From the NCBI RefSeq assembly GCF_988243305.1, contig NZ_OZ547136.1: 64,000 bases of DNA. The stretch is one strand, 5' to 3'. Positions 5,044 through 39,740 of the stretch are shown here, piece after piece. Positions within the stretch are counted from its first letter, which is position 1, and every line of letters begins with the position of its first letter. The position numbers were made by a program, and so were the translations under genes. The notes beneath the pieces are model-generated. The model made no database searches and was not told the origin of the DNA. It saw only the letters and a program-made list of their open reading frames with translations.

Positions 5044-5787
5044 TTATTCTCCTGCCCAGTGGCAGGCGTCGCGTAGCGGCGCAATAACCCGCGCCAGCCC
5101 GTCAATGTTAAAGGTCAGCTTTCCGGCAGCATTGTCTGTGCCGGTATCAACCGTCAGTGTTTTAGCAGCGAATAGTTGCTTAATTTCATCAATACCGGAT
5201 AACCCCCGGCTGGACTCCAGCAGGGTGCCGTTCTCGCGCACAAACCAGTGGCTGCGCAATGCCCGGCTGTCGGCATTCAGGGTGACGGCGATATCATGGA
5301 CATCCAGAGGATGCATCAGCGCCACCTGCATCCGGGTGATATTGTCCACGCAACTGAACATCAGCACCGGGCGCGGCGGAACATGACCGATAGCCGGGGT
5401 GGTTATCACTACCGTCGGGCGTTCACCCGGCACCTGCGTCACCAGCAGCTCTGTGGTGCTGCCCTGGCGGCGTTTTTCCTGCTCTGTGGCGCGGGTCCAG
5501 GCTTCGCCCACAAAGCTGGCTTTGACCAGTGCGGCGTTGCCGAAGCCGGGCTGTTCCGGTGCAAGAATGCGGTCATAACAGTCAAGCCGCTCCAGCGCCG
5601 CAGATTCCCGCCGACAGGACTGCATGGCCTGTAACGTGGCTGTCGCATCCGGCGGGGGCGTGGTGGCGACGGCGACCGCCGCACCGGCCATTGACGATGT
5701 TTCTGCGGGCGCGGCACTGGCGGGTAAGCCCGCCATCAGGCCCGCGATAAACCATCCTGCCTGCCGGAAAACGCGCAACCTGCTCAT
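5044..5787 (-). CDS. T6SS-associated exported protein (VasI/TagO-like); family assignment tentative
   Basis: 247-aa ORF embedded between clpV and tssA; N-terminal signal-peptide-like segment (FIAGLMAGLPASAAPA); 4-nt overlap with the clpV stop suggests translational coupling. Confidence 0.5.
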   Translation of the reverse strand: MSRLRVFRQAGWFIAGLMAGLPASAAPAETSSMAGAAVAVATTPPPDATATLQAMQSCRRESAALERLDCYDRILAPEQPGFGNAALVKASFVGEAWTRATEQEKRRQGSTTELLVTQVPGERPTVVITTPAIGHVPPRPVLMFSCVDNITRMQVALMHPLDVHDIAVTLNADSRALRSHWFVRENGTLLESSRGLSGIDEIKQLFAAKTLTVDTGTDNAAGKLTFNIDGLARVIAPLRDACHWAGE

Positions 5788-28088: not shown

Positions 28089-30533
28089 TTACGCGGCTTC
28101 AACTTTCCGCACTTTCTCCGGCAACTTTACCGGCTTCGTCGCCAGCTCTTCCGGATCAAAGTCATCAACGTTAATACTGCGCAGACGGCTTTCTTCAGCT
28201 TTCACCAGAATAGCGGCTTCATCTTTATCAATCAGCCCCTTCGCCAGCGCGTTATGCGCCAGTTCATCCAGACGGGTAAACGGCAGGTTTTTACCCAGCT
28301 CTTTACAGATCCGCTGATGAATTGGGTCGGCGGCAATCACATCCACCAGCGCCTCTTCCAGTAAGCCAACCGGGTTATGCTCGCTCGGCGTCAGGTACTG
28401 ACCGCGACCAATACGTGAACGGGTGGCGTTCGGCACTTGTAAAATCTTCGCCACCTTATGATCCAGCTTGTCAGAAGGTGCCAGATAATGACGTCCGGTC
28501 GGGAAGATCACCACATTCAGCAGCCCGGCAACCACGCGGTTCGGGAAGTTTTGCAGTAAATCATCCATCGCCTGTTCAGCCTGATACAGCGCATCCTGTA
28601 CGCCCCAGTGCACCAGCGGCAGGTCGGCTTCATTACGGCCTTCGTCGTCATAACGCTTCAGAACGGCAGAGGCGAGGTAAAGCTGGCTTAAAATATCCCC
28701 CAGACGTGCCGAGATACGCTCACGACGTTTCAGGCTGCCGCCCAGCACAGCCATCGAGACATCAGAAAGCAGGGCGAGGTTGGCGCTCAGGCGGTTCAGG
28801 TGCTGATAGTAGCGTTTAGTGGCATCGCCGGTTGGCGTGCTGCTGGTTAAACCGCGCGTCAGGCCCAGCCAGAAGCTGCGAACTTTGTTGCTACCGACGT
28901 GACCGATATGTTTAAACAGGAGTTTATCGAACGCGTTGACGTCATTGTTCTTCGCCGCTTCCATCTCTTCCAGCACGTACGGATGGCAACGAATCGCTCC
29001 TTGTCCGAAGATCATCATGCTGCGGGTCAGAATGTTAGCCCCTTCAACGGTGATGGCAATCGGCGCGCCCTGGTAAGCACGCGCCAGGAAGTTGCTCTGC
29101 CCGAGCATAATGCCTTTGCCACCAGTGATATCCATCGCATCAATAATCGACTGCTGCCCGCGGTGGGTACAGTGATACTTAACGATAGCCGACAGCACGG
29201 CAGGTTTTTCACCGAGCATAATGCCGTAGGTAATCAGCGATGCCGCAGCATCCATTACATAAGCGTTTCCGGCAATACGCGCCAGCGGCTCTTCAATCCC
29301 TTCCATCTTACCAATAGAGATTTTGAACTGACGGCGGATGTGCGCATACGCACCCGTTGCCAGCGCTACCGATTTCACGCCGCCGGTTGAGTTGGAAGGC
29401 AGGGTGATACCGCGGCCTACCGAGAGGCACTCCACCAGCATCCGCCAGCCTTGCCCGGCCATTTTTGGTCCGCCGATAATGTAATCGATCGGTACGAAGA
29501 CATCTTTACCGCGCGTCGGTCCGTTCTGGAACGGCACGTTCAGCGGGAAGTGGCGACGACCAATTTCCACGCCCGGCGTGGTAGTCGGGATCAGCGCACA
29601 GGTAATACCTAAATCTTCTGCACCGCCGAGTAATTTCTCCGGGTCGGAGAGTTTAAACGCCAGCCCAAGCACGGTCGCAATCGGTGCGAGCGTAATGTAA
29701 CGTTTGTTCCAGGTCAGACGCATCCCCAGCACCTGCTGGCCCTGCCATTCCCCCATGCAGACAATCCCGGTGTCCGGAATCGCGCCCGCATCGGAACCCG
29801 CTTCCGGGCTGGTCAGTGCAAAGCAAGGGATTTCCTGACCACGCGCCAGACGCGGCAGATAGTGATCTTTCTGCTCGTCAGTGCCGTAATGTTGCAGTAG
29901 CTCACCCGGGCCTAATGAGTTTGGCACGCCGACGGTAATCGCCAGGATCCCGCTCACGCCGGAGAGTTTTTGCAGCACGCGAGACTGGGCATAAGCCGAG
30001 AACTCCAGCCCGCCGTACTCTTTTTTGATGATCATCGCGAAGAAACGATGCTCTTTAAGGTACGCCCACAACTCCGGCGGCAAATCAGCCAGCTCATGAG
30101 TAATCTGGAAATCATTCGCCATCCGGCAGGCTTCTTCTACCGGGCCGTCGAGAAACGCTTGCTCTTCTGCGGTCAGGCGCGGCTGCGGATAGTTATGCAG
30201 CTTTTTCCAGTCCGGCTTGCCCTGGAACAAGTCGCCCTCCCACCATGTGGTGCCTGCGTCGATCGCTTCTTTCTCAGTGCGCGACATCGGCGGCATCACC
30301 TTACGGAAGCCGCGAAATACCGGCGCGGAAATCATCGACTTACGCATAGGCGCAAAGTTAAATGGCACGAGGATAATGGCCAGAGGCACCAGTACCCACG
30401 CCGACCACAGACCAGCAACGCCGAGGGCGGCTGTCCAGGCGAGCAAAATCAGACTGCTGATAAATAAGCTCACGCGGTGATAGAACAACGCGCCGAGCAG
30501 GACAACCGTAGCGAGAATACTCAAAATCATCAT
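28089..30533 (-). CDS. fadE: Acyl-CoA dehydrogenase FadE
   Basis: ORF track 28089..30611 (840 aa); start at internal ATG 30533 ([11 protein letters not shown]...) gives the 814 aa expected for FadE. Confidence 0.9.
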
Positions 30534-30772
30534 AACGAAAAGCCCCTTACTTGTAGGAGGTCTGACCACTTGTGATGATATGGTTGTAGTGGATGTAAAA
30601 ACATTTAGCAATGTGTTTACAATATAATTACAACAAAGCTCACATTGTTGCTGTTTTTATCCGCACTTCAGGTCAAAAAGTCCTGGTCATAGCACCTGCC
30701 CGTACTTCTCGCTTTTGGCGGTATCCGGTACACTGCATTTTGTCTATTACATTTATGCTGAAGGATATCCTC

Positions 30773-31351
30773 ATGTACCAGGATCTTATTCGTAACGAAC
30801 TGAACGAAGCGGCGGAAACGCTGGCTAACTTTTTAAAAGATGACGCCAATATTCACGCCATTCAGCGCGCGGCGGTCCTGTTAGCAGACAGCTTTAAAGC
30901 CGGTGGCAAAGTGCTTTCCTGCGGCAACGGCGGCTCCCATTGCGACGCTATGCACTTTGCCGAAGAGTTGACCGGTCGCTACCGTGAAAACCGTCCGGGC
31001 TACCCGGCGATTGCCATTTCTGACGTTAGTCATATTTCCTGCGTCGGTAACGATTTTGGTTTCAATGATATTTTCTCCCGTTACGTTGAAGCGGTAGGTC
31101 GCGAAGGCGATGTACTGCTGGGGATCTCCACCTCCGGTAACTCTGCAAACGTGATCAAAGCGATCGCGGCGGCGCGTGAGAAGGGGATGAAAGTGATCAC
31201 CCTGACCGGTAAAGACGGCGGTAAAATGGCTGGCACAGCGGATATCGAAATTCGCGTACCGCACTTTGGTTATGCCGACCGCATTCAGGAGATCCACATT
31301 AAAGTTATCCATATCCTGATCCAGTTAATTGAAAAAGAGATGGTTAAGTAA
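30773..31351 (+). CDS. gmhA: Sedoheptulose-7-phosphate isomerase GmhA (LpcA)
   Basis: ATG at 30773 ([17 protein letters not shown]...) with AAGGA ribosome-binding site; 192 aa; SIS domain. Confidence 0.9.
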
Positions 31352-31455
31352 GTCTGGCGTAGGCCGAATAATGCGTTTACGCCGCATCCGACCTGAAAAT
31401 ACTTAAATCAATCTTCGCCGGGGGCCATGCGCTCCCGCTGTTGTGGAGGTTACCC

Positions 31456-32223
31456 ATGTGCGAATTGCTCGGGATGAGCGCCAACGTCCCTACCGATATC
31501 TGCTTTAGTTTCACCGGTCTGGTGCAGCGTGGTGGTGGAACCGGGCCACATAAAGATGGCTGGGGCATTACCTTTTACGAAGGTAAAGGCTGTCGCACAT
31601 TTAAAGATCCGCAACCCAGCTTTAATTCCCCCATCGCCAAACTTGTCCAGGACTACCCGATAAAATCCTGTTCGGTGGTGGCTCATATTCGCCAGGCGAA
31701 TCGGGGCGAGGTGGCGCTGGAAAATACTCACCCGTTTACCCGCGAGTTATGGGGGCGTAACTGGACTTATGCCCATAACGGACAACTGACGGGGTACAAA
31801 TCACTGGAAACCGGCAACTTCCGCCCGGTCGGTGAAACCGACAGCGAAAAAGCCTTCTGCTGGCTCCTGCATAAATTAACGCAGCGTTACCCGCGCACAC
31901 CGGGCAACATGGCGGCAGTGTTTAAATATATCGCCTCACTGGCGGATGAACTGCGGCAGAAGGGCGTTTTCAACATGCTGCTTTCTGACGGGCGCTATGT
32001 AATGGCGTATTGCTCGACTAATTTACACTGGATCACCCGCCGCGCGCCGTTTGGCGTGGCAACGTTGCTGGATCAGGATGTGGAAATCGACTTCAGCTCG
32101 CAGACCACACCGAATGATGTGGTCACGGTGATTGCGACACAGCCCCTGACGGGCAATGAAACCTGGCAAAAGATTATACCAGGCGAATGGCGCTTATTTT
32201 GCCTCGGGGAGCGTGTAGTTTGA
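31456..32223 (+). CDS. yafJ: Class II glutamine amidotransferase YafJ
   Basis: [15 protein letters not shown]... with Cys2 nucleophile; GGAGG ribosome-binding site upstream; 255 aa. Confidence 0.85.
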
Positions 32224-32934
32224 TGCCAGCTGTGGTTGCACAACTTCGTGGCTTAACGGCTTGCTGACCACGTAACGGCCATTGACCACAGAAACGGTCG
32301 GTGGCTTACGGGTTTGCTCAAAGTAGTCGTAGCCCGGTTTCAGTTGCTCCCAGAAGTCCTTAAAGTTGGAATACTTATGGCGCTTCATATTGGCGTCGGT
32401 CATGCGGAACGGGTAAATACTCACTTGCACGCTCGGCTGACCAAACACCAGCGCACCAGTAACGAACTGGAAGATCTCATCAATACCCTGATTGGTCATC
32501 GCGTAGCAGCCGATGGAAACACAATCGCCGTGGATCATCAGGTATTTCCCTTCATAACCATGCGCACGGTCATAGGCATTGGGGAATCCAATATTAATCG
32601 CTTTGTAGTAACGGCTGTCTGGTTTTAACTGATTACGCTGGACGCTATAAAACCCTTCCGGGCTTTTGAAATCGCCCTGACGCTGTTTTGGCCCTAAACC
32701 GCCGGAATATTTACAGATTTTATAACTGTCGAGCAGCTGATATTGCTCGCCCATTTTGACGTAGAGATCGAGCGTACGTTCTTCCTTGAAGATCTGGATG
32801 TAGACAGGGGATCCCATCAACTGCTGCTTATACTCTTTGCTCACTGGCGTGGTTGAGCTACTGCTGCCCAGCAAACCGGCAAACGAAACGCACGGGATCA
32901 ACAACATCGCAAGAATTAATGCGATTTTACGCAT
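32194..32934 (-). CDS. yafK: L,D-transpeptidase family protein YafK
   Basis: 246 aa; signal peptide; catalytic [12 protein letters not shown] motif of the YkuD family. Confidence 0.85.
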
Positions 32935-33225
32935 ACTGCTTATTCCTTGATAAAACGGTTACACACGCCAGGACGGCAAAATGGATCCCAAATCGGAATA
33001 GTCTGGATTTGGAAGGCTCACATTATCACCAAAAGAGTTTTACGCAAGCCTGTCGGCGCAGGGTTTACAAATTTAGCACAGGGGCAGTTTTCAATAGTCC
33101 GAAAAGCGCATGTATCATTTATTTCCTAAGATTATGAAACCTCAATAGTAATATGCAAATAAGCAATTAATAATTCCGTTTACTCCTCCGGTCTTTTAAA
33201 ATTCTCACCTTCATTCAGCCGGTTT

Positions 33226-33984
33226 ATGTCCTTCATGTCTTCGTTCTTGCTCGGCAGATTTCTGCATCCAGGCGTGTTTTCGTTATGCGTTTTGCTCCCT
33301 TTACTCGCCAGCGCCACCACATCACATATCTCATTCAGCTACGCCGCCCGCCAGCGGATGCAAAACCGTGCGCGTTTATTAAAACAGTACCAAACCCATC
33401 TGAAAAAACAGGCCAGCTATATTGTGGAAGGCAATGCCGAAAGCAGAAAGGCGCTGCGCCAGCACAACCGCGAACAGATAAAACAGCATCCAGAATGGTT
33501 TCCTGCGCCGCTCAAGGCGAGTGACAGACGCTGGCAGGCGCTGGCGGAAAACAACCACTTTTTAAGCAGCGACCATCTGCATAACATCACCGAAGTGGCG
33601 ATCCACCGCCTGGAGCAGCAGCTTGGCAAGCCTTACATCTGGGGCGGCACGCGGCCTGATAAAGGCTTTGACTGTAGCGGGTTGGTTTTTTATGCCTACA
33701 ACAAGATCCTCGAGGCGAAACTCCCACGCACGGCTAATGAGATGTATCACTATCGCCGGGCAACCATTGTGGCGAATAACGACCTGCGCCGGGGAGATTT
33801 GCTGTTTTTTCATATCCACAGCCGCGAGATTGCCGACCATATGGGCGTGTATCTGGGCGATGGACAGTTTATTGAGTCGCCGCGCACCGGGGAAACCATA
33901 CGGGTAAGTCGGTTAGCTGAACCTTTCTGGCAGGATCATTTTTTAGGCGCGCGCAGGATTTTGACGGAAGAGACGATTTTGTAG
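33226..33984 (+). CDS. yafL: NlpC/P60-family lipoprotein YafL
   Basis: 252 aa; NlpC/P60 motif GFDCSGLVFYAY plus downstream His; matches YafL as recalled. Confidence 0.8.
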   Translation: MSFMSSFLLGRFLHPGVFSLCVLLPLLASATTSHISFSYAARQRMQNRARLLKQYQTHLKKQASYIVEGNAESRKALRQHNREQIKQHPEWFPAPLKASDRRWQALAENNHFLSSDHLHNITEVAIHRLEQQLGKPYIWGGTRPDKGFDCSGLVFYAYNKILEAKLPRTANEMYHYRRATIVANNDLRRGDLLFFHIHSREIADHMGVYLGDGQFIESPRTGETIRVSRLAEPFWQDHFLGARRILTEETIL

Positions 33985-34081
33985 GACGGCAATACTGCGA
34001 AAAAGTTAAAGTCGTACACGTTTTTCTCCCTCTCCCCAAAGGGGCGAGGGGACAGTCCGAGACCTTATATAGTCTCCCCCA

Positions 34082-35821
34082 TCAACTCAACGCCCCCATA
34101 ATCTTCAACTCCAGCTCGTCCGGCACTTCGTTATACGACAGCACATGCAGCCCCGGCGCAAACAACCTTGCATAACGCGCCAGCAAAGGACGCAACTGCG
34201 GCGGCACCAGCAGCACCGGGTCTTTCCCCGCCGCTTTCATCTGCTCTTTTACCTGCGGCATCGTACTCTGGAACTGGTTGAGCATATTCGGATCGACCGG
34301 CACGCTGTCGAGCATCACTTTCCCGCCCTGTTGCGCCTGATTCACCACGTTGGTCAGCAGATTTTCCAGTTCATTATTCAGCGTATACACCGCCAGCTCC
34401 TGCTTGCGAACGAACGGATGGGTAATGCTGCGCCGCAATGCCAGGCGCACATCGGCCGCCAGCAGGATATGATCTTTGGTCACTGTGCTACTGGCGACCA
34501 GCACGGTGGCGATGGTGACGATATCGCGCAGGGAAACGCCTTCGGTCAGCAGCGCCCGGTACACTTTCAACAACTGGCTGTAATTGAGTGCCGCGCTCAA
34601 ATCTTCCGCCAGCCGTGGTGCCATCGATGACAGGCGATTGTGTAACTGCGTGATGTCGTCATAGTTAAACAAATCAGGAATATAGCTGCGCACAATCTTG
34701 TTCACATGGGTGGCAATCACGCTGGCGCTGTCGATCACCTGATACCCCATATTCAGCGCCTTCGCCTTCTGCGCGGGCTGGATCCAGGTGACCGGCATCC
34801 CGTACGCCGGGTCGTTCCCCAGCACGCCGTCTATCTCGCCGTAGGTTTCGCTGGAGGGCAGCGCCATCAGTTTATCCGCCGGAATATCCGCTTCATCGGC
34901 CTTAATGCCGTTGATGAATATGGCGTACTGGCTGGGCTTGAGGCGGAAGTTTTCCCGAATGCGGATCTCCGGCAGCAGCACGCCGTTGCCGTCAGAAATC
35001 ACCTGCCGCACGCCGCGAATTCGCTGGGTGAGCGGGTTGCCCTGTGCTTTGTCCACCAACGCCACCAGCTTGTAGCCGAGACTTAAACTGATAGGCTCGA
35101 TCAGCGGAATGGTTTCCCAACTGACCTGTTGCTCGCTGGTTTCGGTGATAGTCCGGGTCAGCGTTTCGAGGCTTTTCTCTTCTGCCTCCGCCGCCTGCGG
35201 GCGTTTGCTCATCCGCCAGCCGGTAAAACCCAACAGGGCGCTGAACAGCAAAAACGGCAGATGCGGCATCCCCGGCACCACCGCCAGCACAAACATGATC
35301 CCGGTGGCGGTGTAGAGCACCGACGGGCTTGCCAGCAGCTGGTGGCGCACGTCATGGGCGATATCGCCGTTGTCGCTGACGCGGGTGACGATAATTGCCG
35401 CCGCGGTGGAGAGCAGCAGGGACGGGATCTGCGCCACCAGGCCGTCGCCGATGGTCATCAGCACATATTGCTGGAAGGCGGCATCGGCGCTCAGGTTGTA
35501 TTTGAAGATCCCGATACAGACGCCGCCGATCAGGTTGATCGCCAGAATCATCATCCCGGCGATGGCGTCCCCGCGCACAAACTTCGATGCCCCGTCCATT
35601 GCGCCGTAGAAATCAGCCTCGCTGGCAACATCTTTACGCCGGGTTTGCGCCTGCGCCTGGTTGATCAACCCGGCGTTAAGATCGGCGTCAATCGCCATCT
35701 GTTTGCCGGGCATCGCGTCCAGGGTAAAGCGGGCAGAAACCTCGGAAATACGCTCGGCCCCTTTGGTGACGACAATAAAGTTGATTGTCAACAGCGTCAG
35801 TAAATCCGAGCGTGAAAGCAT
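34082..35821 (-). pseudogene. lfhA: lfhA: 5'-truncated Flag-2 flhA homologue (promoterless fragment)
   Basis: 579-aa ORF homologous to FlhA from about residue 110 onward (...FIVVTKGAERISEVSARFTLDAMPGKQMAIDADLNAG...); lacks the FlhA N-terminal transmembrane region. Confidence 0.75.
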
Positions 35822-35825
35822 TATC

Positions 35826-36551
35826 GCCGCGCTGCACGGGCAGTCGATTTTTAACGGTGGCGGGCTGTCGCCGTTAAATAAAATCAGCCCGTCTCATCCG
35901 CCAAAACCTGCCACCGTGGCGGTGCCGGAAGAGACGGAGAAAAAAGCGCGTGACGTCAACGAGAAAACGGCGCTGCTGAAGAAGAAATCCGCTACTGAGC
36001 TTGGCGAGCTGGCGACCAGTATCAACACCATCGCCCGTGATGCACATATGGAAGCGAATCTGGAGATGGAGATTGTTCCCCAGGGACTGCGCGTGCTGAT
36101 TAAAGATGACCAGAACCGCAATATGTTTGAACGCGGCAGCGCGCAGATTATGCCGTTCTTTAAAACTTTGCTGGTGGAGTTAGCACTGGTTTTTGATTCG
36201 CTCGACAATAAGATCATCATCACCGGGCATACCGATGCGATGGCCTACAAAAACAATATTTACAACAACTGGAACCTTTCGGGCGATCGCGCGCTTTCGG
36301 CCCGTCGGGTGCTGGAAGAGGCCGGAATGCCGGAAGATAAAGTGATGCAGGTAAGCGCAATGGCGGACCAGATGCTGCTGGATGCCAAAAATCCGCAAAG
36401 CGCGGGCAACCGGCGCATTGAGATTATGGTGCTGACCAAAAGTGCGTCCGATACGCTGTATCAATACTTTGGTCAGCATGGGGATAAAGTGGTGCAGCCG
36501 CTGGTGCAAAAGCTGGATAAGCAGCAGGTGCTTTCGCAGCGAACGCGTTAA
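35826..36551 (+). pseudogene. lafU: lafU: 5'-truncated Flag-2 MotB-like gene (C-terminal OmpA-like domain only)
   Basis: C-terminal MotB/OmpA-like region (...NWNLSGDRALSARRVLEEAGMPEDKV...GNRRIEIMVL); N-terminal membrane anchor absent; 5' boundary approximate (ORF track 35661..36551 overlaps lfhA). Confidence 0.6.
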
Positions 36552-36621
36552 ATGCTGAATCTTTACGCATTTCTCAAACTCTGAAATCACTGTATACTTT
36601 ACCAGTGTTGAGAGGTGAGCA

Positions 36622-37677
36622 ATGCGTAAAATCATTCATGTGGATATGGACTGCTTTTTCGCCGCAGTGGAGATGCGCGACAATCCCGCCCTGCGCGATA
36701 TCCCTATTGCTATTGGCGGCAGCCGCGAACGTCGGGGGGTGATCAGCACCGCCAATTATCCCGCGCGTAAATTTGGCGTACGTAGCGCTATGCCTACTGG
36801 GATGGCGCTCAAATTATGCCCACATCTCACCTTGCTTCCGGGGCGCTTTGACGCTTACAAAGAAGCCTCAAATCATATCCGTGAAATCTTCTCGCGCTAC
36901 ACCTCGCGCATTGAACCGTTGTCACTGGATGAGGCCTATCTCGATGTCACTGATAGCGTCCATTGCCACGGTTCTGCGACCCTCATCGCCCAGGAAATCC
37001 GCCAGACAATCTTCAACGAGCTGCAACTGACGGCGTCTGCGGGCGTGGCACCAGTAAAGTTTCTCGCTAAAATCGCCTCCGACATGAATAAACCCAACGG
37101 CCAGTTTGTGATTACGCCGGCAGAAGTTCCGGCATTTCTGCAAACCTTACCGCTGGCAAAAATTCCCGGCGTCGGCAAAGTCTCGGCGGCAAAACTGGAA
37201 GCGATGGGGCTGCGGACCTGCGGTGATGTGCAAAAGTGTGATCTGGTGACTCTGCTCAAACGTTTTGGCAAATTTGGCCGCATTTTGTGGGAGCGTAGTC
37301 AGGGGATTGACGAGCGCGACGTTAACAGCGAACGGTTACGAAAATCCGTCGGCGTGGAACGCACGATGGCGGAAGATATTCATCACTGGTCTGAATGTGA
37401 AGCGATTATCGAGCGGCTGTATCCGGAACTTGAACGCCGTCTGGCAAAGGTGAAACCTGATTTACTGATTGCTCGCCAGGGGGTGAAATTAAAGTTCGAC
37501 GATTTTCAGCAAACCACTCAGGAGCACGTCTGGCCGCGGCTGAATAAAGCTGACTTAATTGCCACCGCGCGTAAAACCTGGGATGAACGTCGCGGCGGGC
37601 GCGGTGTGCGGCTGGTGGGGCTGCATGTGACGTTGCTTGACCCGCAAATGGAAAGACAACTGGTGCTGGGATTATGA
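36622..37677 (+). CDS. dinB: DNA polymerase IV DinB
   Basis: 351 aa; [26 protein letters not shown]... Y-family polymerase. Confidence 0.9.
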
Positions 37678-37728
37678 TGTATACTATTATGTCTATTCTG
37701 GTGTGCATTATTATGAGGGGATCACTGT

Positions 37729-38022
37729 ATGCATCGAATTCTCGCTGAAAAATCGGTCAATATCACTGAGTTACGTAAAAACCCAGCTAAATACTTTATT
37801 GATCAACCGGTTGCGGTTCTTTCTAATAATCGCCCCGCAGGATATCTCTTAAGTGCCAGCGCATTCGAAGCGTTAATGGACATGCTTGCAGAACAAGAGG
37901 AGAAAAAACTGGTGAAGGCGCGCTTCCGTCCGAGTGCCGCAAGATTAGAGGAAATTACACGCCGCGCTGAACAATATCTTAATGATATGACGGATGATGA
38001 TTTCAATGACTTTAAGGAATAA
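37729..38022 (+). CDS. yafN: Antitoxin YafN
   Basis: 97 aa; matches YafN as recalled; immediately upstream of yafO. Confidence 0.85.
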   Translation: MHRILAEKSVNITELRKNPAKYFIDQPVAVLSNNRPAGYLLSASAFEALMDMLAEQEEKKLVKARFRPSAARLEEITRRAEQYLNDMTDDDFNDFKE

Positions 38023-38024
38023 GG

Positions 38025-38423
38025 ATGCGGGTATTCAAAACAAAACTTATTCGCCTGCAACTTACAGCAGAGGAACTTGATGCGTTAACGGCGGATTTTA
38101 TTTCCTATAAGCGTGACGGTATTTTGCCAGATATATTTGGTCGCGATGCACTCTACGACGACTCGTTTACCTGGCCATTAATCAAATTTGAGCGAGTTGC
38201 TCATATTCATCTGGCAAATGTGAATAATCCATTTCCGCCACAGTTGCGCCAATTCAGCAGAACGAATGACGAAGCGCATTTGGTATATTGTCAGGGGGCG
38301 TTTGATGAGCAAGCATGGTTGCTCATTGCCATTCTGAAGCCTGAACCTCATAAACTGGCTCGAGATAACAACCAAATGCATAAAATTGGAAAAATGGCAG
38401 AAGCGTTTCGCATGCGTTTTTGA
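38025..38423 (+). CDS. yafO: Toxin YafO
   Basis: 132 aa; matches YafO as recalled; starts 3 nt after the yafN stop. Confidence 0.85.
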   Translation: MRVFKTKLIRLQLTAEELDALTADFISYKRDGILPDIFGRDALYDDSFTWPLIKFERVAHIHLANVNNPFPPQLRQFSRTNDEAHLVYCQGAFDEQAWLLIAILKPEPHKLARDNNQMHKIGKMAEAFRMRF

Positions 38424-38432
38424 ATTTATATT

Positions 38433-38846
38433 ATGAATAACATACAAATAAGAGATTATCAGCCTGGCGATTTTCAGCAACTATGCGCTATTTTCATTAG
38501 AGCGGTTACGATGACCGCCAGTCAGCATTATTCACCACAACAAATTGCCGCCTGGGCGCAGATTGACGAATCTCGCTGGAAGGAGAAACTCGCGAAATCA
38601 CAAGTGCGGGTTGCAGTCATTAATGCAAAACTGGTCGGCTTTATTACCTGCGTTGAACACTATATCGATATGTTATTTGTTGACCCTGAATACACCCGCC
38701 GTGGGGTTGCCAGCGCTTTGTTAAAACCTTTGATTAAGTCTGAATCCGAACTTACAGTGGACGCCAGCATAACCGCAAAACCCTTTTTTGAACGTTATGG
38801 TTTTCAGACAGTTAAGCAGCAGCGCGTTGAATGCAGGGGAGCGTGA
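38433..38846 (+). CDS. yafP: GNAT-family acetyltransferase YafP, apparently truncated by 13 codons
   Basis: 137-aa ORF ends at TGA (38844-38846); the next 12 in-frame sense codons (FTNFYMRYKPQH) then TAA would restore a 150-aa protein. Confidence 0.8.
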   Translation: MNNIQIRDYQPGDFQQLCAIFIRAVTMTASQHYSPQQIAAWAQIDESRWKEKLAKSQVRVAVINAKLVGFITCVEHYIDMLFVDPEYTRRGVASALLKPLIKSESELTVDASITAKPFFERYGFQTVKQQRVECRGA

Positions 38847-39129
38847 TTTACTAATTTTTATATGCGATATAAACCGCAACATTAAATTCAGCTTGCAATG
38901 AAAATAACACCCGCCTGGTATGTGCGCGTTTTCTTATTCCACAAACTGCAAGGAGGTAAATCATGACAAATCCTTTATCAATGACTCTTTGCAGACCTTT
39001 CCAGGATTAATTCTTTTTTCTTGCCCTGGATTCGTCTGCCATTTCCTGATTTTTATATTTATATACTCTAAATAATTCGAGTCGCAGTACATGCAACTTG
39101 AAGTATGACGAGTATAAATGGAATGATAC

Positions 39130-39684
39130 ATGGGCAAATATATTCGTCCCTTATCCGATGCGGTATTTACCATCGCATCTGATGACCTGTGGATCGAGAG
39201 TTTAGCGATTCAACAATTACACACCACGGCAAATTTACCCAACATGCAGCGCGTAGTAGGGATGCCAGATTTACACCCCGGACGCGGCTACCCGATTGGC
39301 GCAGCGTTATTCTCTGTTGGTCGTTTTTACCCGGCAAGACGTCGCGGTAACGGTGCTGGAAACAGAAACGGGCCGCTACTCTGACACGCTGCGTTCGGCG
39401 CTGATTTCTCTGGATGGCGATAACGCATGGGCATTAAGCGAAAGTTGGTGCGGCACTATTCAGTGGATTTGTCCGAGTCCGTATCGGCCTCATCATGGGC
39501 GCAAAAACTTGTTTCTGGGCATGCTAACAAGCGGCTGGCGCGATTGCTGATTGCCTGGAAGCTGGAACAACAGCAACAGGAAAATAGCGCGGTGCTGAAA
39601 TCGCGGCGGCGAATGTTCCATCACCAGATTGAACGTGGCAACCCGAGACGGACATTTACAGGGATGGCTTTTATCGAAGGATAA
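39130..39684 (+). pseudogene. ykfJ'/prfH' remnant: RtcB N-terminal fragment followed by fragmented release-factor-H homologue
   Basis: Three short overlapping ORFs in different frames: RtcB-like N-terminus (...[25 protein letters not shown]) and PrfH-like pieces (...[48 protein letters not shown]). Confidence 0.5.
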
Positions 39685-39740
39685 TGAAGGATGAAACTGC
39701 CGGAAGGCGATTAAACGCCATCCGGCAGCAAATCAAATAA

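Follow-up and report, generated by a model that had tools for sequence, protein, structure and literature searches.

The stretch of DNA analysed here (the window) comprises 64,000 nucleotides (nt) of contig NZ_OZ547136.1 from RefSeq assembly GCF_988243305.1 and contains, in this order, yafL, lfhA', lafU' and then dinB-yafNOP. lfhA' and lafU' are truncated forms of the two terminal genes of Flag-2, the lateral-flagella cluster, and the region is almost certainly a Flag-2 (lfhA-lafU) deletion scar of the fhiA/mbhA type. An earlier note on this DNA had read the locus as the footprint of a deletion between the two terminal genes of the cluster, and both the position and the junction match those of fhiA/mbhA in Escherichia coli K-12. 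The feature is therefore already known.

The minus-strand open reading frame (ORF) at 34082-35821 matches the Pfam family FHIPEP (E=3.8e-189) over positions 99-656 of the 657 in the profile, with the N-terminal part absent, and the sole Pfam match of the plus-strand ORF at 35661-36551 is an OmpA domain (E=9.4e-15). When aligned base by base to SCU-113, an E. coli strain with an intact cluster (locus L002), the window has lafU-derived sequence from 35783 and lfhA-derived sequence up to 35785, the alignment to intact lafU beginning at L002 position 7162. lfhA' aligns to the intact SCU-113 lfhA without a gap and with 95.6-95.8% identity. Codons 1-130 of the 697 in lfhA are absent from the window, as are codons 1-52 of the 307 in lafU, and the latter loss takes in the transmembrane helix (...FADFTLAMMALFMTLW) with its conserved Asp. 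The segment deleted amounts to 35,200 nt in the SCU-113 reference. The Pfam matches and the alignment bear out the earlier claims that both genes are 5'-truncated and that lafU' is without its membrane anchor. Two of its figures need correction, namely the junction, given as about 35800-35830 and thus off by 15-45 nt, and the number of missing lfhA residues, given as about 110 where the alignment gives 130 codons.

When the start codons were reconsidered no full-length gene was recovered, as ATG 35821, GTG 35766 and TTG 35661 all lie in antisense sequence of the partner gene and the resulting ORFs are chimeric. Of these, GTG 35766 is the start chosen by the Prokaryotic Genome Annotation Pipeline (PGAP) for a 261-residue 'LafU', judging from the coding-sequence coordinates in KE55 and the K-12-type strains, and the scar LafU proteins (P0002, P0017, P0018, P0031 and P0099) begin with (M/V)TTIKL followed by IVNSVS. 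Full-length LafU (307 residues) contains MotB_plug (PF13677) and OmpA (PF00691), while the 261-residue scar forms have PF00691 alone. The equivalent lfhA' of other strains is flagged by PGAP as 'incomplete; missing N-terminus'.

Neither fragment is a complete flagellar component. lfhA' is not a complete FlhA export gate, the first 98 FHIPEP profile positions and 130 residues being gone, and lafU' is not a MotB-type stator, the OmpA-like domain alone being left after deletion of the FADFTLAMMALFMTLW helix. LafU' has neither a membrane anchor nor an export signal for its periplasmic OmpA domain. The remaining genes of the cluster, about 40, are absent from the window, and the Flag-2 interior (35.2 kb of SCU-113) has no counterpart in the 64 kb beyond interspersed repeats of 32-44 nt. 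In the intact cluster lfhA and lafU are each the last gene of an outward-reading operon, so that the promoters of both fragments were deleted. A consensus scan detected no sigma-70-like site upstream of lafU'; it found promoter-like sites for dinB (36571-36635) and one weak minus-strand site (35847-35820), which is no more than shuffled sequences give. This agrees with the earlier note, which had called both fragments promoterless. Each half is without its own promoter and its membrane-anchoring N-terminus, and any function in Flag-2 must have been lost.

Table 1 Features of the Flag-2 scar and its neighbours, in window coordinates.
Feature	Position	Strand	Description	Basis
lfhA' (fhiA)	34082..35785	(-)	Flag-2 FlhA homologue without its 5' end; codons 131-697 and stop	
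lafU' (mbhA)	35784..36551	(+)	Flag-2 MotB homologue that has lost its cytoplasmic N-terminus, transmembrane helix and plug; codons 53-307 and stop	
Deletion junction	35783..35785		GAT at both breakpoints of the intact cluster; crossover inside GAT	three-way alignment
Chimeric 5' extension of lfhA' frame	35786..35821	(-)	12 codons, MLSRSDLLTLLT, from antisense lafU'	ORF list and junction mapping
Chimeric 5' extension of lafU' frame	35661..35782	(+)	from antisense lfhA'; starts TTG 35661 and GTG 35766	
yafL (NlpC/P60 peptidase)	33226..33984	(+)	left neighbour	ORF list, syntenic annotation
dinB (DNA polymerase IV)	36622..37677	(+)	right neighbour; LexA box CTGTATACTTTACCAG at 36590-36605	ORF list, syntenic annotation

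The spacer between yafL and lfhA' (33985-34081) is just 97 nt long in the window, where neither rayT nor hicAB is present. In other strains it holds rayT, encoding a transposase of the repetitive extragenic palindrome (REP)-associated tyrosine type, together with REPs, or the toxin-antitoxin pair hicAB, and is thus a variable insertion point adjoining the scar. A G/C-rich, hairpin-type interspersed repeat of 32-44 nt (…CTCCCTCTCCCCAAAGGGGCGAGGGGA…) has two copies in the window, one in this spacer (34028-34061) and one at 31358-31402; four further copies of the CTCCCTCTCCCCAAAGGGGCGAGGGGA-type repeat are intergenic in the intact Flag-2 cluster (L002 interior positions 5512, 20722, 23368 and 30413, counted from L002 7163). 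Chi sites (GCTGGTGG) lie on the plus strand at 35338-35345 and 36170-36177, one in each scar fragment and in the orientation that suits RecBCD entering from the right. Another deletion scar, also polymorphic between strains, is found nearby at 39130-39700, where an N-terminal fragment of RtcB (ORF 39130-39384) is followed by a fragment of prfH. The full rtcB (1140 nt) and prfH (615 nt) are present in SCU-113, ZYB62, E18, E12 and WY517-2, and the truncated pair in KE55, SC418, the K-12-type strain and HCP5S3_I2.

The fhiA/mbhA scar of K-12 is said to have been described by Ren, Beatson, Parkhill and Pallen in 2005 (J Bacteriol 187:1430). The K-12 and window scars share the same two truncated genes, the same yafL and dinB neighbours and the same junction nucleotide, and the K-12-type locus L004 aligns without a gap across the junction. 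A three-way alignment gives the same junction in the K-12-type strain, KE55 and SC418. The window differs from K-12 in that its allele is 95.7% identical, that rayT is missing beside lfhA' and that its lfhA' is nearest to the intact genes of pig isolates.

Sequence similar to the window scar region is present in 5420 of 5426 complete E. coli genomes, in 4071 of them unsplit and with the annotation of a partial FlhA together with 'LafU', and a 70-nt junction probe gives an unbroken match in 4074 of the 5426. Where the match is split, its two parts are separated by the full Flag-2 cluster, which has about 40 genes. The only plasmid matches found when plasmid-borne copies were considered as vectors were laboratory F' episomes and chromosomes mislabelled as plasmids. 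The identity of the scar agrees with the relevant passages of PMC6993521 and PMC3032704, both of which cite Ren et al. 2005. According to the section of De Maayer et al. 2020 (PMC6993521) on the locus, the lfhA-lafU deletion, recognised by its pair of pseudogenes, occurs in 531 of 4028 Enterobacterales strains, most of them from taxa in which complete flag-2 loci are known as well. The lfhA/lafU pseudogene pair is present in every one of the 76 E. coli that lack flag-2, and the deletion is put down to recombination between direct repeats. In Escherichia albertii, as stated in the corresponding part of PMC11420993, about 25% of genomes have Flag-2 and all others 'uniformly' have both truncated genes, the loss again being ascribed to direct-repeat recombination.

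Ten scar and seven intact E. coli alleles were compared base by base. The best identity of the window scar to any scar in the 5426 genomes is 97.1%, and pepD, 4 kb away, is 99.9% identical to that of strain KE55. With the window lfhA' alone as the query, the three best matches are all genomes with an intact lfhA (pig isolates including HCP5S3_I2), from which it differs at 2 of 1704 nt, both differences being synonymous. By comparison, lfhA' differs between scars at 23-116 of the 1704 nt (up to 6.8%). The same trend is exemplified by three scar/intact pairs, in which lfhA' differs by 1 nt (K-12-type scar and intact C1) or not at all (WY517-2 scar and intact ZYB62; E12 scar and intact E18/AVS0967), lafU' has 0 differences in 769 nt, and the flanks, compared over 10-13 kb, have no more than about 3 mismatches. 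The genome search gave additional families in which scar and intact members score equally. Single-nucleotide polymorphisms (SNPs) that separate scar haplotypes occur on both sides of the junction, at distances of 11, 50 and 63 nt (left) and of 82 and 168 nt (right), and at each of these a scar follows its intact twin; no scar-specific variant or linked haplotype was found near the junction among the compared alleles. The scar alleles are therefore not one clade but polyphyletic. In the lineage of the window, the scar very probably goes back to an intact cluster with an lfhA similar to the one now found in pig isolates. The intact cluster of HCP5S3_I2 also carries cargo in a variable region, a DNA cytosine methyltransferase and a type II restriction endonuclease being inserted between flgA and flgM (L021 24687-27404).

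The window is itself a mosaic, with lfhA' like that of intact HCP5S3_I2, lafU' like that of the scar strain LSC52, and the switch within 35775-35860. Haplotype switches at the junction are seen in the comparisons of the window with LSC52, of the window with HCP5S3_I2 and of two Atlantibacter hermannii loci (L104 and L105) with each other. Across the fadE-pepD interval (window 29000-39000, compared with L003, L005 and L021), patches of 0% and 4-6% divergence alternate at a scale below 1 kb, even against the closest strains.

Neither a stop codon nor an indel was found in the E. coli scar alleles examined, and thirteen scar loci annotated by PGAP carry the 'incomplete' flag only, with no frameshift or stop noted. 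The ratio of non-synonymous to synonymous divergence (dN/dS) between E. coli scars is 0.01-0.05 at a synonymous divergence (dS) of up to 0.31, and intact alleles compared with each other give the same ratio. The dS of lfhA within E. coli, at up to 0.31, also equals the distance between E. coli and E. albertii (0.27). If about 0.145 disrupting events are assumed per neutral substitution (nonsense and indel rates combined), 13 undisrupted neutral alleles would have a mean neutral age below about 0.06% divergence, and at 0.5% divergence the chance of finding 13 of 13 undisrupted would be below 1e-10. The word 'relics' in the earlier note fits poorly and needs qualification, as these fragments are undecayed and their synonymous bias is strong. 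This lack of decay would imply that the scar is of recent date or is renewed lineage by lineage, or else that it is under selection. From these comparisons it appears very probable that scar alleles everywhere are recently derived from intact alleles and that the sequences carrying the scar are older than the scar state itself.

These data bear on the textbook reading, in which one ancestral deletion was inherited vertically and the fragments have since drifted as neutral pseudogenes. It would account for a junction that is the same wherever it was checked and for fragments that have no conceivable flagellar function. It is at odds with the polyphyly of the scars, with the dN/dS of 0.01-0.05 in E. 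coli, with 567-codon frames that are open at dS above 1 between genera, and with the 13 undisrupted alleles. The polyphyly, the dN/dS and the undisrupted frames exclude a single old deletion followed by neutral drift, and the textbook reading as a whole is extremely improbable.

The same junction is found outside E. coli, the genera that have it numbering at least five. It is identical in the E. albertii type strain (NBRC 107761, L025), the lafU' flank of which is 12-17% diverged from that of E. coli, starting 22 nt past the junction. The lfhA' of this strain has a 22-nt frameshifting deletion (equivalent to window 34830-34851), which is the sole clear decay in any scar allele examined. DNA of Kluyvera, Atlantibacter (two species) and Citrobacter amalonaticus has yafL, lfhA' and lafU' with the junction at the same nucleotide, AAGTT(G/A)AT followed by (T/C)GT.... 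A protein search with the chimeric LafU' retrieved truncated LafU proteins that start with (M/V)TTIKL or MKL followed by IVNSVS, each of its own genus type, from Citrobacter gillenii, C. amalonaticus, another Citrobacter, Kluyvera ascorbata, another Kluyvera, A. hermannii, another Atlantibacter and the unclassified Enterobacteriaceae bacterium H11S18; for C. gillenii, the other Citrobacter sp., the other Kluyvera sp. and H11S18 the junction is seen at the protein level only. A motif scan of genome contigs, swamped by the universal FlhA motif DAMPGKQM, gave only three close relatives (two intact Citrobacter and one E. albertii scar).

The scar flanks are genus-specific in E. albertii, Citrobacter, Kluyvera and Atlantibacter, and the arms of different genera have a mismatch every 5-10 nt and no identical run of more than 11 nt. 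Within Atlantibacter, scar and intact LafU alleles are interspersed by similarity (judged by eye, without a tree), and in Kluyvera a scar LafU is one residue away from a full-length LafU. A scar/intact twin at the DNA level was not found in Kluyvera, where L102 and L108 are 98.75% identical. No close intact allele was found for A. hermannii, the nearest intact LafU being 85% identical. The right-hand chromosomal context varies between genera and species while the junction stays the same; what lies to the right of the scar in Atlantibacter (L104/L105 and L110) is not dinB but either DHDPS and cob genes or genes for short-chain dehydrogenases.

The lfhA' of Kluyvera, of Atlantibacter and of C. 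amalonaticus has a length of exactly 1704 nt and an open frame of 567 codons, and between genera dS exceeds 1 with a dN/dS of 0.025-0.13. The lfhA' differences between scars are all synonymous in Kluyvera (15/15) and A. hermannii (23/23). Constraint of this kind, seen across five genera, would be expected if an old deletion had created a functional module, a pair of truncated LfhA and truncated LafU kept by purifying selection, in which LfhA still has its cytoplasmic ring domain and conserved cytoplasmic loop, along with the transmembrane segments that were not deleted. The idea is especially attractive in A. hermannii, with its lack of a close intact allele, and it agrees with the absence of disrupted alleles among the E. 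coli scars examined and with the annotation of lafU' by PGAP as an intact 261-residue coding sequence. A functional module leaves unexplained, however, why scars are identical to intact alleles yet 5% apart from each other and why haplotypes switch at the junction. LafU', without anchor or export signal, would have no route to the periplasm, the consensus scan gave no promoter-like site upstream of lafU', all partner Flag-2 proteins are absent, and the E. albertii type strain has the frameshift in lfhA'. Such a module is accordingly improbable. The purifying-selection signature of the fragments, the identity of clonal scar and intact alleles and the base-identical junction across genera are not reported in the portions of PMC6993521 and PMC11420993 that deal with the scar.

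The reading favoured here, with about an even chance of being correct, is that the identical junction results from repeated, precise deletion at a hot spot and not from a single ancestral event. The scar itself shows that the lateral-flagella cluster of about 35 kb was removed between lfhA codons 130/131 and lafU codons 52/53, and that the two outward-facing 3' gene halves were joined back to back at the GAT trinucleotide. The same exact deletion may have recurred many times, at a site that has stayed a hot spot throughout the Enterobacteriaceae. Slightly more tentatively, it may be that Flag-2 is shed time and again by one exact excision in Escherichia, Citrobacter, Kluyvera, Atlantibacter and their relatives, through a conserved, site-specific or extreme hot-spot deletion for which no recombinase is known. 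Recurrent deletion is favoured because a single assumption would cover the traceless clonal twins, the finding that scars of every genus are polyphyletic and yet identical at the junction across genera, and the haplotype switches located there. Switches at the junction are expected under this reading, since the flanks would have been 35 kb apart for most of their history.

The two breakpoints have just (G/A)AT in common. Each breakpoint, as read from the sequences, is central in a short palindrome or quasi-palindrome, TGATGATCATCA in lfhA (a perfect palindrome of 12 nt) and CTGTGGATTGTCAACAG in lafU (a quasi-palindrome of 17 nt), and these sit in two transmembrane-coding stretches with sense strands identical at 21 of 28 positions. 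The earlier note had proposed alignment to an intact cluster and a search for a short direct repeat at the breakpoint; the repeat consists of GAT only, with 11 matches in the 18 positions around it. No extended homology beyond GAT was detected by blastn-short and a gapless register scan over 1.5 kb on either side of both sites, and an exact 11-mer near the breakpoints is 2 nt out of register.

Several other kinds of element were considered and rejected. A site-specific excision element with att-like repeats does not agree with a repeat of GAT and 11 of 18 matches. Site-specific insertion does not agree with the breaks among intact alleles, which are near the sites and not at them (SCU-113 and ZYB62 switch about 50 nt inside the deleted side). 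Comparison by eye with dif/Xer sites, integron attC, the gyrase cleavage consensus and IS1 ends gave no convincing likeness. rayT, hicAB and IS1 are present in some strains only.

A number of points weigh against recurrent deletion. We know of no mechanism for repeated cutting at the same two nucleotides. The microhomology at the breakpoints is 2-3 nt, and six exact 10-mers and two exact 11-mers common to lfhA (antisense) and lafU went unused. No recombinase is present among the annotated genes of five intact clusters, hypothetical proteins having been left out of the profile examination. The number of E. coli alleles read base by base, about 13 from scars and 8 from intact clusters, is small. 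The locus is intensely mosaic at a scale below 1 kb, among scar and intact alleles, and recombination could therefore have shuffled the flanks. About 100 nt around the junction are SNP-poor, with 2 variable sites in the last 50 nt to the left and 0 in the first 51 nt to the right, so that a short mismatch-free recombination patch could move the junction tracelessly. A scar frequency of 75% with all scars 'young' also requires an odd source-sink demography. Finally, published phylogenies of sequence type 131 (ST131) read the polymorphism as Flag-2 insertion (PMC5369007).

The mosaicism, to which the window itself contributes, and the scarcity of variable sites near the junction are what would be expected if the junction had one or a few origins and was then passed between strains by homologous recombination or by annealing of short DNA. 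Rejection of diverged heteroduplex by mismatch repair would favour short SNP-free patches and could thereby produce 'traceless' scar/intact twins, and the junction would persist as a long-lived presence/absence polymorphism, or by rare cross-genus transfer, with flanks continually overwritten from intact alleles. Spread of this kind explains the uniform junction automatically and needs no new biochemistry. It fits less well with the three clonal twin pairs, none of which (0 of 3) has an imported SNP in 10-13 kb though typical donors differ by 1-6%, or with the K-12-type and E12-type scars, which differ just 11 nt from the junction. The divergence of the arms between genera would make cross-genus transfer hard. 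A well-mixed pool of flanks, 75% of them from scars, predicts a dN/dS near 0.75 and frequent disruptions, where 0.02 and none were seen, and there is no hitch-hiking scar haplotype. A dip in diversity at the breakpoints, considered as a signature of a sweep, is weak and is present on the deleted sides too. Spread by recombination is thus rather unlikely, though it is the strongest of the rival explanations.

Recurrent deletions with fixed ends are known from the precise excision of Tn10 and Tn5 and from the deletion hot spots of lacI, which are RecA-independent and fall at very short direct repeats beside inverted-repeat or palindromic DNA. The Flag-2 scar resembles these in its fixed end points, its very short direct repeats and the palindromic DNA, and in the recurrence proposed for it. 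It differs from them in that they have long inverted repeats (the IS ends) or a short deleted segment, whereas in Flag-2 the inverted similarity is 21 of 28 nt, the direct repeat 2-3 nt and the span 35 kb, and the recurrence is a proposal made from sequence comparison. Programmed excision elements that interrupt genes, such as skin/sigK of Bacillus subtilis and the cyanobacterial nifD element, and integrase-borne genomic islands have a dedicated recombinase and restore a gene on excision. The likeness of Flag-2 to these lies in the loss of a large segment at one exact pair of sites, leaving a uniform 'empty site' on many backgrounds. In contrast, excision of Flag-2 destroys two genes, no recombinase is annotated in the five clusters, and the intact alleles have no phylogenetic break exactly at the sites.

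The pseudogene pair alone is ordinary, textbook material; the real puzzle is the population pattern of its junction, which is base-identical in about 75% of E. coli, has a similar share of E. albertii and many Citrobacter according to the literature, and was found here in Kluyvera and Atlantibacter. The sequence backgrounds that carry it are unrelated and undecayed. If the junction does form anew each time, it would mark an unrecognised precise-deletion mechanism acting on a 35-kb cluster, and the scar would be a state that arises repeatedly, perhaps as a one-way off-switch of the lateral flagella, and not an ancestral accident. If instead it has spread by recombination, it would be a clean natural example of a deletion allele that moves without dragging flanking variation along. 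Either way, presence or absence of the locus is unsuited as a stable phylogenetic marker, and 'Flag-2 insertion' events in clone phylogenies such as that of ST131 deserve re-examination as possible losses.

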